IMG/VR virus record: IMGVR_UViG_2778261534_000005
DNA length: 7,663 bases
From: a virus
Lineage: Duplodnaviria; Heunggongvirae; Uroviricota; Caudoviricetes
Reading direction: 5' to 3' (one strand)
Shown here: one piece after another, positions 2,117 through 4,781 of the stretch
How positions within the stretch are numbered: position 1 is the stretch's first letter
Layout: each line of letters begins with the position of its first letter
Program-made: the position numbers and the translations under genes
Notes under the pieces: model-generated
What the model was told of the DNA's origin: nothing
Databases searched by the model: none
Seen by the model: only the letters and a program-made list of their open reading frames with translations

Positions 2117-2395
2117 ATGAATAAACACACATTAACCCGTATTTCAGAGGAAGCTTTTAACGAGCTTACCAGAATTAAACGAGCTACTAACTTGCCTCAT
2201 CAAACTGTTATGCAACTTGCAATCGCTAAAGAAGTCACTGAGTCGGATTTACTTAAATATCCAGTCTCTAAAGGTCGTAAACACATCCGAATTACTACGG
2301 ACGCTTTAGATACTTTGAAGGCACTTAACAGCTTTAAAATTGATATTGCCCGACTATTGAGCATCAAGATTCACAAATTATCTCAGGAGGTCTGA
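2117..2395 (+). CDS. Hypothetical small protein, 92 aa; possible ribbon-helix-helix-like DNA-binding protein
   Basis: GGAGG at 2101..2105; starts 3 nt after the upstream stop. The N-terminus (TLTRISEEAFNELTRIKRATNLPHQTVMQLAIAKEV) has a strand-helix-helix pattern reminiscent of CopG/Arc-type folds. The fold assignment is inference only. Confidence 0.65.
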   Translation: MNKHTLTRISEEAFNELTRIKRATNLPHQTVMQLAIAKEVTESDLLKYPVSKGRKHIRITTDALDTLKALNSFKIDIARLLSIKIHKLSQEV

Positions 2396-2397
2396 TT

Positions 2398-2670
2398 ATG
2401 AAGCAATGGCGAGATGATATTAAACGGTTCTTTGCAACTTACTTCATGATTAATTACGAAACAGGAATGCTTGAATGGATTGATGGCGGAGAGGTTAAGA
2501 CAAGAGATGATGCTTACGGTAATCCAATGATTCGTTATGGCACTCGTGATTATTATGTGAAGTATGTCATCTGGTTTTTGCATCATGAAGTTCAGGCAAC
2601 TAAAAAGATTATCTTCAGGGATGGTAATAAAAGAAATTGCCACCCAAACAATTTGCTACAGGAGGTTTAA
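2398..2670 (+). CDS. HNH_3-like (homing-endonuclease-related) small protein, 90 aa; canonical catalytic His not evident
   Basis: AGGAGG at 2385..2390 with 7-nt spacing; starts 2 nt after the upstream stop. The C-terminal IIFRDGNKRNCHPNNL (nt 2608..2655) matches the DGNK-N...NL core of HNH_3-type endonucleases, but Phe-Arg sits where His-Ile is usual. Confidence 0.7.
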   Translation: MKQWRDDIKRFFATYFMINYETGMLEWIDGGEVKTRDDAYGNPMIRYGTRDYYVKYVIWFLHHEVQATKKIIFRDGNKRNCHPNNLLQEV

Positions 2671-3056
2671 TGTATGACTTTTATAAACATCGTGACCATT
2701 TGGTAAGATTTGACGGTAAAGTCTGGAAAGACGTAACACAAACCAATAAGCCCAAGTTTACCCACCAGCAATTAGCCTCAAGATTTGATATCTGGACTGA
2801 AGCACAAAAAGATAATGGTGATTTCGAGTTTATCAGGGGTTTTGATTATGCTTACGAAGACGACCTTAAAGACGCCATTAAATTAATTGAGAATTTCAAC
2901 TCTATTAAAAGTGGTGACAAGCACAAAGCCAATGGTAACAGATACGATAAAGATTTAATCATTGATGCAATCACCAAAGGACAATCACAAAGTTATATTT
3001 CTGAGAAATACGGTTTATCACGCAGTCAATACTACAAGATTAAAGCGTCTGTGTAA
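2670..3056 (+). CDS. Putative DNA-binding protein, 128 aa, with a C-terminal recombinase/invertase-type helix-turn-helix
   Basis: The ATG at 2670 overlaps the upstream TAA (TAATG); GGAGG at 2661..2665. The ORF track starts this frame at a TTG at 2637, but the ATG with its Shine-Dalgarno is the more likely start. The C-terminal SQSYISEKYGLSRSQYYKIK resembles HTH_7/Hin-type helix-turn-helix motifs. Confidence 0.7.
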   Translation: MYDFYKHRDHLVRFDGKVWKDVTQTNKPKFTHQQLASRFDIWTEAQKDNGDFEFIRGFDYAYEDDLKDAIKLIENFNSIKSGDKHKANGNRYDKDLIIDAITKGQSQSYISEKYGLSRSQYYKIKASV

Positions 3057-3068
3057 GCCTGTGAGAAT

Positions 3069-3115
3069 GAGTGAGACTCAAAGATGAGCTACCCTATTAC
3101 TAAGGTGTCTCACTC
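3069..3115. promoter_or_regulatory. Perfect 9-bp inverted repeat GAGTGAGAC-N29-GTCTCACTC in an intergenic region
   Basis: Arms at 3069..3077 and 3107..3115 are exact reverse complements. A second small hairpin follows (gtaacc/ggttac, 3121..3137). No T-tract follows, so it is not a classical intrinsic terminator. Confidence 0.45.
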
Positions 3116-3193
3116 CCTCTGTAACCCGCATGGTTACTGGCCTCAGAATGGCTATTTTGGCAGATTTAAGATGTGTTTTAGAGGAATTTAAAA

Positions 3194-3517
3194 ATGAACA
3201 ATCACCCAATGCAAATTTTCGTTGATAACGACACCGCCATGATGATTCAGGCTTTCAGTGATGTAGGTGTTGGCATTGACTTTGATAAGTTGTTAGAGTT
3301 AATGGCTGCTAATGCAGAAAACATCTCTGACTTTATTCAGTCGGTGGAGTTTAACGAGCCTCGAATGATGCTACCAATTTCAGACAGCAACATGAAAAGA
3401 TTGGTTATCGAGCAAACGAACAAATACAGCGTTAGCCCTGAAAGATATCTCAAGGCAGCTATAGCAATTTTGTACGCTGACAATATTTTGGTGACGGATT
3501 CCGTGAGGGTTCACTAA
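3194..3517 (+). CDS. Hypothetical protein, 107 aa
   Basis: AGAGGA ribosome-binding site at 3179..3184, 9 nt before the ATG. No family recognised. Confidence 0.65.
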   Translation: MNNHPMQIFVDNDTAMMIQAFSDVGVGIDFDKLLELMAANAENISDFIQSVEFNEPRMMLPISDSNMKRLVIEQTNKYSVSPERYLKAAIAILYADNILVTDSVRVH

Positions 3518-3594
3518 TGACGTTAATTGTATTATGGACGCTGTTAGGCTTATTTGTTGGCTGCATTATTAACAATGCGGTAAATAAGAATTGA
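3517..3594 (+). CDS. Small hydrophobic peptide, 25 aa (MTLIVLWTLLGLFVGCIINNAVNKN), possible single-pass membrane peptide
   Basis: Absent from the ORF track (too short). The ATG at 3517 overlaps the upstream TAA (TAATG); GAGGG at 3505..3509 with 7-nt spacing. Hydrophobic core followed by a polar basic tail. Confidence 0.4.
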   Translation: MTLIVLWTLLGLFVGCIINNAVNKN

Positions 3595-3618
3595 TGTTAC
3601 CAATCTGTTAAAAAGCTG

Positions 3619-3647
3619 TTGACAAATAACCTTAAGCATGACATAAT
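3619..3647 (+). promoter_or_regulatory. Sigma70-type promoter (TTGACA-17-CATAAT)
   Basis: Perfect -35 TTGACA at 3619..3624, 17-nt spacer, CATAAT at 3642..3647. Confidence 0.5.
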
Positions 3648-3656
3648 TTTAATTAT

Positions 3657-3684
3657 AGAGAGAATTGCTCTCTTATTTTTTTTT
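3657..3684 (+). terminator. Hairpin plus T-tract (intrinsic-terminator-like) just downstream of the promoter
   Basis: agagag (3657..3662) pairs with ctctct (3668..3673), loop aattg, followed by tattttttttt (3674..3684). Confidence 0.5.
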
Positions 3685-3817
3685 CAACAATTCCATCTAC
3701 ATCTAGGGATAGTTATTCTGAAAGGTGCAATGCTTTTCGCTACATGGCCTCTTATATAACCTGAGAGGTCATCTCGAAAAGTCTTTGTTCATTCATTATT
3801 GAATCCTTTACAGCTTT

Positions 3818-3856
3818 GCCCTAACTCATGATTAGGGCGTTTCTTTAAGAGTTTTT
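3818..3856 (+). terminator. Hairpin plus U-rich tail (terminator-like)
   Basis: gccctaa (3818..3824) pairs with ttagggc (3832..3838), 7-nt loop, then gtttctttaagagttttt. Confidence 0.4.
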
Positions 3857-3915
3857 AAACAGAACTTTTAAAGAAAGTTTTTCCTGAAACTTCGTTAACG
3901 TTAAAGCAAACCTTC

Positions 3916-3960
3916 AAAGCCCTTCACAGATGAGGATGAACCTATGTTTAGGGCTTTTTT
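3916..3960 (+). terminator. Hairpin with a large loop plus T-tract (terminator-like)
   Basis: aaagccct (3916..3923) pairs with agggcttt (3950..3957) around a 26-nt loop; the T run extends to 3960. Confidence 0.35.
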
Positions 3961-4070
3961 CAGCTTTTAAAAAGCATACTTGGCAAACGCCTTTTAAGCC
4001 TCTTCTAAGTTCGAGGATGTCAGGTGTGCTTTTTAAAAACTGAATATTACTTAGAAGAGGAAATGAAATA

Positions 4071-4781
4071 ATGGCAAATGACATTTATATTAGTGGAAGA
4101 AAAATTGATAGCTTCGGTGACTGGTCGCCACAGACTGAACATCCAGCTATCGCTATTCAGCGCAAAGAGCACGATGAAAGAATTGCACTTGAGCAAGAGT
4201 TAAAGATGACACCAAAGGAAATTACCTTTGTGTCTCCTGAGCCTCAAGAGATGCCTGATGTATGCAAAACTGAATCATTACTTGAGCTTGAGCGTGAATA
4301 TTACCCACTACTGAAAGCACAAAGAATTAAACTTGATATTGCTTACGATGCGGTTAAGAACTTCGAAGAAACCTCGAAACCTTCAGAATATGATATTGCT
4401 TACGAGATTAAGTCAAACCCATTTATCTATTATGAAGGAAACTTTAATGATGGTTTTGGTACAGCGATTGAAGACGTTCCTAAAGTTCTTCAAAGTATCC
4501 CTGAAGGGTTCCGGTTAATTGATGTCAGACAAGCATTAAGGGGTTCTGGTCAATTTATCCTGATGAGTGATAAGACAGATGAAGAGATTCTTCAGTTAGC
4601 TGAAGCTAATTTGACTAAGCATTATTCCGGTAAACTGGATAAGTTAAAGCAAAAGCTTAGAAAAGAACTTGATAGCATGAAAGAACTTGTTAGTGAATAT
4701 GAATCACAGAAGAAGATTGCTATGCAGGCTGATATTGAGCAGTTAGTGAAGATTTCAACGAAGTACGCAAAGGTGCTTTAA
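4071..4781 (+). CDS. Hypothetical acidic protein, 236 aa; possible tail assembly chaperone by position (inference)
   Basis: GAGG at 4057..4060 about 10 nt before the ATG. First gene after the long noncoding region and two genes upstream of the tape measure gene. Rich in Asp/Glu with a helical, charged C-terminus. Confidence 0.7.
   Translation: MANDIYISGRKIDSFGDWSPQTEHPAIAIQRKEHDERIALEQELKMTPKEITFVSPEPQEMPDVCKTESLLELEREYYPLLKAQRIKLDIAYDAVKNFEETSKPSEYDIAYEIKSNPFIYYEGNFNDGFGTAIEDVPKVLQSIPEGFRLIDVRQALRGSGQFILMSDKTDEEILQLAEANLTKHYSGKLDKLKQKLRKELDSMKELVSEYESQKKIAMQADIEQLVKISTKYAKVL

Follow-up and report, generated by a model that had tools for sequence, protein, structure and literature searches.

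A perfect inverted repeat lies between the gene of a putative helix-turn-helix (HTH) protein and the next gene in a viral DNA record of 7,663 nucleotides (the whole stretch that was analyzed, referred to as the window). The question raised by this locus is whether the repeat, here called IR1, is a binding site for the product of the adjacent gene, a structured element of RNA or single-stranded DNA, or a recombination remnant without function. The initial annotation had favored an operator for a dimeric protein or an RNA processing or stability element over a terminator, both for IR1 and for a second hairpin next to it.

Genomic setting and properties of the inverted repeat

The window is part of an integrative island of ~11 kb in complete E. 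coli genomes (e.g., chromosomes L016 and L031, and strain CFSAN061772, NZ_CP042893.1, at ~1,932,000), and matches to the window were found in 545 of 5,426 complete E. coli genomes (~10%). A large serine recombinase (integrase) gene forms the island boundary, genes for a small serine recombinase and a Dam methylase are often present, and there are at least two insertion sites, between ymdF and wrbA or within a DUF72 gene. The tape-measure and baseplate genes resemble those of Felix-O1 phages; parts of the tape-measure gene show 92% identity to Felixounavirus phages, and the final 206 bases of the window show 96–97% identity. Judged from its sequence, the island looks like a phage satellite and is a candidate satellite of Felix-O1-type phages. 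The literature search retrieved no paper on satellites with Felix-O1-type tail genes or on the island itself, and no DNA homologous to window positions 2300–4100 was found in GenBank phages. Genes for a replication initiator, a primase, or a helicase were not recognizable in the island. The features around IR1, in their order along the window, were as follows.

184-aa and 92-aa protein genes, + strand: ORFs before the HNH gene
90-aa HNH endonuclease gene, + strand: ORF with a domain match, directly upstream of the HTH gene
2670..3056, + strand: 128-aa protein gene, putative C-terminal three-helix HTH at residues ~93–127
3057–3193: intergenic region of 137 nt with IR1 and the core motif, between the HTH gene and the 107-aa protein gene
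3069..3077: IR1 5' arm, GAGTGAGAC; the outer GAGT is the same in all alleles, and the inner GAGAC is allele-specific
3078..3106: IR1 spacer of 29 nt; TTAC at 3097–3100 is invariant among alleles
3107..3115: IR1 3' arm, GTCTCACTC; the break-point of inter-allele homology lies within it, after GTCTC
3119..3140, + strand: core motif copy, CTGWAASCCGCRTG(GTTACTGG), enclosing hairpin 2 (3121–3137)
3138..3158, + strand: third small hairpin, TGGCC-TCAGAAT-GGCTA with TTTT after it, not strong enough to be listed by the terminator scan
3194–3517, + strand: 107-aa protein gene, with a ribosome-binding site AGAGGA at 3180–3185
236-aa, 67-aa, and tape-measure protein genes, + strand: after a 550-nt non-coding stretch

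Repeats and promoter-like sites were also seen elsewhere in the window. The ~1.5 kb at positions 1–1559, just before the first gene of the operon, contain no convincing ORF and end in back-to-back promoter-like sites (1470–1441 on the − strand and 1478–1518 on the + strand), with inverted repeats at 1374–1534. The 550-nt non-coding stretch (3518–4070) carries a near-consensus promoter with TG (TTGACA-17-CATAAT, 3619–3647), two terminator-like hairpins (3657–3673 and 3817–3839), and long inverted repeats (3959–3985/4018–4044, and 3999–4010/4049–4060 as a perfect 12 bp), and it could be a small-RNA or regulatory region. Imperfect inverted repeats between the tape-measure and baseplate genes (7279–7301/7331–7353 and 7365–7385/7404–7424) directly precede the block with 96–97% identity to Felix-O1-type phages.

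IR1 was read in the sequence exactly as annotated, as a perfect 9-bp inverted repeat with a 29-nt spacer (3069–3115), 12 nt past the stop codon of the HTH gene. Perfect 9-bp inverted repeats with a spacer of 3–40 nt occurred in 1.2% of the dinucleotide shuffles of the 137-nt intergenic region, and seed matches of such repeats in the whole window numbered 7 versus 1.76 expected (~4-fold). The folding z-scores were ordinary (−1.4 and −1.9 for the + strand, and −2.6 for the − strand). The IR1 stem was predicted in the MFE and centroid structures alike, and three extra outer pairs can lengthen it on the + strand (AGA/TCT in allele A, which is that of the window, and AGG/TCT with one G-U in allele B, described below). 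A partial half-site-like GTGAGA stands at 3061–3066 beside the two inverted copies, and no further copies of the IR1 half-site were found in the window.

Neither IR1 nor hairpin 2 is followed by a T-tract (CCCTCTGT comes after IR1 and TGGCCTCA after hairpin 2), and both were absent from the terminator scan; with a 29-nt loop in the case of IR1, they were rejected as intrinsic terminators, as the initial annotation had argued. The scan listed no sigma-70 promoter-like site or terminator at 3057–3193, ARAGORN reported no tRNA/tmRNA, and Rfam gave no match to this region even to an E of 10. An antisense or guide role of the 29-nt loop was also rejected, as the stem-loops of alleles A and B searched against 50,697 phage records matched by the core motif only.

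The proposal of an operator held in one part and failed in another. The half-sites of a classical dimer operator are ~10–11 bp apart from center to center (adjacent major grooves), and the operator overlaps a promoter. The half-sites of IR1 are 38 bp apart from center to center, which is unusual for an operator, and the region at 3057–3193 has no promoter-like site; thus, IR1 does not fit a classical operator bound by a simple dimer. The part that held is the matching of the alleles of the dyad with those of the HTH gene.

Alleles of IR1 and of the upstream HTH protein

Related loci were collected by protein look-ups and among viral contigs, metagenomes, and species genomes. A stretch of 161 nt spanning IR1 was found whole in 126 E. 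coli genomes and from position 3112 onward in ~50 more. IR1 occurred in three alleles.

Allele A: 5' arm GAGTGAGAC, spacer of 29 nt, 3' arm GTCTCACTC
Allele B: 5' arm GAGTTGCAC, spacer of 29 nt, 3' arm GTGCAACTC
Allele D: 5' arm GAGTGTCAG, spacer of 29 nt, 3' arm CTGACACTC

All three alleles are perfect 9-bp dyads, in which the outer GAGT/ACTC is fixed and the inner five pairs vary. Four of the nine pairs were changed on both sides among the alleles, with no broken pair and no G-U pair; these four two-sided changes trace to just two allele replacements, and the pattern would look no different for a DNA dyad. Alleles A and B agree at only 11 of the 29 spacer positions, without an indel in any of the three alleles, and no secondary structure common to the allele spacers was found on either strand. 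A CCT linker and then the core motif follow IR1 in all three alleles. The third small hairpin (3138–3158) is likewise kept in alleles A, B, and D with differing stems (GGCTT/AAGCC in allele D). The 107-aa protein gene is replaced by other genes in allele D, after the HTH gene, IR1, and the motif, and it is therefore not an obligate partner of IR1.

Within allele A, the commonest, with 27 distinct sequences, variation was observed at none of the 18 arm positions, 9 of the 29 spacer positions, and 10 of the 32 positions of the upstream flank; in this count, the filter partly fixed the 3' arm and left the 5' arm free. For the metagenome loci, the anchors lay beyond the two arms. Conservation of the arms but not of the spacer, which had been suggested as a check, was thus found. 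Comparative data, rather than single-sequence statistics, indicate that IR1 is under selection beyond what chance would give.

The region is highly mosaic, with break-points within the HTH gene and within the 3' arm, and inverted repeats are ~4 times more frequent than expected throughout the window. Both observations would suit a functionless IR1, in which the alleles are hitch-hiking recombination remnants at the edge of a mosaic module, with a dyad symmetry that was inherited. We consider this improbable, as three diverged alleles keep the perfect 9-bp dyad, the spacer length, and the spacing from the motif, the ACTC of the conserved side is in every case matched by GAGT on the side that diverged, and the arms are invariant where the neighboring positions vary.

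The 128-aa protein encoded upstream (2670–3056) matched HTH_28, HTH_7, and HTH_23 of Pfam, all below the threshold, and a sequence search of the PDB returned only the DNA-binding domain of gamma-delta resolvase with a marginal E of 1.4. The single-sequence model placed helices at residues 94–102, 107–114, and 118–127 with pLDDT of 72–83 and was otherwise poor (mean pLDDT of 56.6). These matches and the model weakly suggest that the protein ends in a three-helix HTH, as the initial annotation had it. No initiator, primase, or helicase domain was recognizable in the protein. Its family is confined to Escherichia, and the genes are mosaics of N-termini of two kinds and C-termini of three kinds. 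The gene upstream of allele B (L026, 997–1422) encodes a product 58% identical to the window protein, and that upstream of allele D encodes a third homologue (P0025), 42% identical to the allele B protein. The putative recognition helices are SRSQYYKIKASV, SRRQYFYVKSLI, and SDRQYYRIKKRV for alleles A, B, and D, respectively.

Each of the three IR1 alleles goes with its own C-terminal HTH allele. In locus L115, a B-type N-terminus is joined to an A-type C-terminus and the repeat is of type A, and the IR1 allele always follows the C-terminal HTH. In a further group of islands (type C), the homologue is truncated ahead of the HTH, and both IR1 and the core motif are absent. The HTH domain, IR1, and the core motif thus appear to behave as one module, as would be predicted for a cognate pair of protein and site. 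As IR1 changes together with the DNA-binding tail of the upstream gene, it is most likely the docking site of that protein, and we give about an even chance to IR1 being the cognate binding dyad of the 2670–3056 product. Adjacency of the two alleles is a confounder of their linkage; because the HTH, IR1, and the motif lie side by side, inheritance as a single block without co-evolution could explain it.

If IR1 is the cognate dyad, the C-terminal HTH would recognize two inverted 9-bp half-sites, in each of which the outer GAGT is constant and the five inner bases would set the specificity. As the half-sites are exactly 38 bp apart from center to center, binding would require an oligomer of the protein by which the DNA is bridged or wrapped. 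The locus would then offer three natural specificity alleles and a ready-made swap experiment, and allele swaps would show how this E. coli island, a satellite-like element, labels its DNA as its own.

Compensated arms would be no less expected of a stem of RNA or single-stranded DNA. IR1 could accordingly form a stem-loop in a polycistronic + strand transcript, as a barrier to 3'-5' exonucleases, a site of processing by RNase E or RNase III, or a regulator of translation further downstream, with arms that co-vary merely to keep the stem. All nine pairs are formed in all sequences with four of them changed on both sides, IR1 comes right after a stop codon in a tightly packed + strand operon, its stem is present in the MFE and centroid structures with three more outer pairs possible on the + strand, and another long-range inverted repeat occupies this position in the type C islands. 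We nevertheless judge an RNA stem-loop to be unlikely, though the most serious of the structural alternatives. The folding z-scores are ordinary, neither a G-U intermediate nor a one-sided change was seen among the nine pairs, a fixed 29-nt loop without conserved inner structure is unlike the needs of a simple stabilizer, and the spacer substitutions within allele A suit the − strand slightly better than the + strand. The 5' arm of allele D lies within the coding sequence, and an RNA stem leaves the linkage to the presence or absence of the HTH domain unexplained.

Other structures were noted in the related islands. In type B islands (L026 and L027, ~1425–1445), a small extra hairpin lies upstream of IR1 and shows a compensatory change between the copies (CTATC-TAAGAAAC-GATAG versus CCATC-TAAGAAAC-GGTAG). 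In type C islands (L016, 17565–18170, and L007–L010, L012, L013, and L015), the HTH C-terminus, IR1, and the motif give way to a short extra ORF and a different intergenic region, which has a long-range inverted repeat (CGCTCTCAATCGC ... GCGATTGAGGAG) and a boxB-like CCCTGAAAAAG.

The core motif at the second hairpin

Hairpin 2 was also found as annotated, with GTAACC (3121–3126), CGCAT, and GGTTAC (3132–3137), while its interpretation as a structural element was not borne out. Of its six pairs, three deviate among the island relatives, solely by mismatches; variants that break the pairing are GAAACC, GTAAGC, GAATAC, and GAATAA, and allele D has GAAACC...GAATAA. Hairpin 2 is instead enclosed in a widespread sequence motif, CTGWAASCCGCRTG(GTTACTGG), whose pairing is broken in many copies including those of the island relatives, and no covariation was observed for either possible dyad; the motif was therefore rejected as a conserved hairpin.

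About 100 unrelated copies of the motif were collected, in which a core of 14–22 nt is nearly invariant. They occur in plasmids, phages, satellites, and integrated elements of Proteobacteria, Firmicutes, Bacteroidota, Acidobacteriota, and Armatimonadota. For CTGWAASCCGCRTGGTTACTGG, 38 stretches were found in one-genome-per-species contigs, whose taxa were Gamma-, Beta-, and Alphaproteobacteria, Tissierellaceae, Selenomonadaceae, Chitinophagaceae, Acidobacteriota, and Armatimonadota, and 41 in viral contigs versus ~0.5 expected by chance. The motif was also present in GenBank phages of Erwinia, Pantoea, Klebsiella, Pseudomonas, Pectobacterium, and others. A scan with the left half only identified CTGTAACCCGCATG as the most constant part, with a variable right half, and conservation of the flanks is gone within 2–3 nt. 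The motif occurs once in the window and as a single copy at most loci.

The core motif is apparently without an earlier description in Rfam or the literature searched: no Rfam match covered it in the window, in four phage loci, or in one type B island locus, and the literature search for its sequence found no paper. To our knowledge, it corresponds to none of the consensuses of IHF, DnaA box, sigma-54, LexA, parS, dif, Ter, CIRCE, and MuA. No conserved small ORF was found downstream of the motif, and no AT-rich side (unwinding region) was systematically associated with it. When the motif was compared with E. coli rRNA for identity or complementarity, the top match was a segment of the rrnH leader just upstream of boxA (CTGAAAGCCGCGTCGCAACTGC, L111 109–130), which agrees with the motif at 17–18 of 22 positions; the match was judged to be probably due to chance, as its p is only ~0.03 and this segment presumably differs in rrnB.

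The motif is usually located amid element-specific repeats beside replication genes. In integrase-bearing islands, it directly follows Toprim-primase and DUF927-helicase genes and has inverted iterons to either side. In other cases, it separates the iterons of a Rep_3 gene from an AT/GATC-rich stretch, adjoins the iterons that precede repHI2 (279 E. coli plasmid records), or lies upstream of the rep gene of a Pseudomonas plasmid. In a rolling-circle (Rep_trans) plasmid of 1.78 kb, it is 37 nt away from the rep gene. At host/insert junctions, the motif abuts the 3' end of a tRNA gene with constant orientation in at least six independent cases (L055 2329–2424, L093 493–598, L064 5555–5696, L036 601–650, L141, and L180), and it overlaps the CCA end of the tRNA in two of the tRNA-junction cases. 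In phage intergenic regions, it is sometimes multicopy and located 40–75 nt upstream of genes. A 21-mer of the motif was found in unrelated high-GC viral contigs between a capsid gene and a terminator, on the strand opposite to the genes. In L148 (3200–4320), an IS200-like Y1 transposase gene is flanked by two copies, each enclosed by REP-like hairpins (GGGGACGGGGG / CCCCCGTCCCC), which is the arrangement known for REP-associated transposases. The motif also lies near an IS91-type Y2 transposase.

The layout seen at IR1 recurs in at least five unrelated elements (L039, L056, L080, L104, and L158), where an inverted repeat of 8–10 bp with a spacer of 18–36 nt stands 0–3 nt before the motif; in L056 and L080, the arms of this repeat are themselves copies of iterons in the flanks. 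A stem of at least 7 bp next to the motif was observed in 15% of 100 instances versus 2–7% at control offsets (~2–7-fold).

Candidate role of the module and comparison with known systems

IR1 ends 3 bp ahead of the generic core motif (3119–3140). As the motif lies amid element-specific repeats by replication-initiator genes elsewhere, we read the HTH gene, IR1, and the motif as one cis/trans module. The module would mark a nucleoprotein assembly site of the satellite-like island, in which the protein would give the element specificity and the core motif the common function. A replication origin, or an equivalent helper-dependent cis site, is the most likely role that we infer for the module, and a replication-origin-type site is our best guess for the core motif. 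The motif also occurs where an origin is unexpected, past a capsid gene, at tRNA junctions, and between the REP-like hairpins by an IS200-like gene. Provided that IR1 is the site of the HTH protein, an origin-like module and a regulatory module are roughly equally probable.

A broader proposal, which we put forward tentatively and which is more probably wrong than right, is that CTGWAASCCGCRTG(GTTACTGG) may be a new cis-element of mobile DNA across phyla, a common site for differing element-specific DNA-binding proteins. The proteins acting at the common core would then include Rep_3, RepHI2, Rep_trans, primase-helicases, and the island HTH protein, and the core might, for instance, be used universally for priming or loading, or be the site of a host factor, both at origins and at those ends of integrated elements that face a tRNA gene. 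In that case, IR1 and the HTH protein would be the smallest known specificity adaptor for such a core, and a core common to unrelated initiators would imply a common host-side step in the replication or mobilization of mobile DNA.

Some of the motif settings point to single-stranded DNA, such as the position 37 nt from the rep gene of the 1.78-kb rolling-circle plasmid, the copies between REP-like hairpins by the Y1 gene, and the position near the Y2 transposase; in the island, the − strand folds somewhat better (z = −2.6), and an HNH endonuclease gene directly precedes the HTH gene. Both IR1 and the core motif might act as single-stranded DNA or an extruded cruciform, for example, to signal priming or nicking or to serve in packaging while a helper phage replicates or mobilizes the island, with the HTH protein not being the reader of the arms. 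This has only a small chance of being correct, as no HUH nuclease, Rep, or terminase gene is recognizable in the island, most contexts of the motif are double-stranded iteron origins, and the matching of the repeat to the HTH allele would be unexplained.

Returning to a site read by the HTH protein, the closest systems are the origins with iterons or inverted repeats, e.g., the SaPI/PICI ori next to pri-rep, P4 ori/crr, PLE ori, and Rep_3 plasmids. As in iteron-type origins, element-specific repeats adjoin the gene of the protein that would read them, and the alleles of protein and site match; the satellite-like setting of the island and the presence of other core motif copies inside Rep_3 and RepHI2 origins are further similarities to satellite and plasmid origins. 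In contrast to iteron-type origins, IR1 has only two half-sites, both on one side of the core, the adjoining 128-aa protein is without a recognizable initiator, primase, or helicase domain, and no AT-rich unwinding element is evident. Double-strand origins of the pT181 family consist of a conserved IR-II with the nick site beside a plasmid-specific IR-III that determines Rep specificity. The island similarly has a family-wide core directly beside an inverted repeat that would give specificity, whereas the sequences are unrelated, the island is without a Rep_trans gene, and the core is common to differing initiators.

The operators of heteroimmune phages (lambda, 434, and P22 type) have half-sites ~10 bp apart and are located at promoters upstream of the regulated gene. 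Allelic HTH recognition helices matched to allelic dyad sites are common to these repressor–operator pairs and the island, whereas the IR1 half-sites are 38 bp apart and downstream of their own gene, with no detectable promoter. Similar to mRNA stabilizer hairpins and REP elements, the IR1 stem directly follows a stop codon without a U-tract; it differs from them in its long loop of fixed length, its linkage to the HTH domain, and the conserved non-structural motif alongside.

In hix, gix, and res site I, two inverted half-sites of ~12 bp flank a 2-bp crossover center, and partner sites are present. The core motif is an imperfect palindrome (...AACC / GGTT...) with a left half, CTGTAACC, similar to gix CTGTAAACC; a small serine recombinase gene is present in the islands, and the putative HTH encoded in the window weakly resembles a resolvase DNA-binding domain. 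The center of the motif is 5 nt and not 2, and most loci are single-copy. The motif was rejected as a serine-recombinase crossover site on account of this 5-nt center, the variants at positions 3 and 6, which break the symmetry without compensation, and the single copy in the window.

Small serine recombinase genes were located relative to the motif as follows. In the islands, the gene lies 3.3–4 kb upstream of the core motif. Such a gene was also seen in the neighborhood of six other motif loci, and most motif loci are without one. In Amphritea (L068 2935–3122 and L071 1188–1375), two direct copies of the motif 166 bp apart, each ~20 nt before CTAGGAATACCA, precede a small serine recombinase gene by 100–350 nt.
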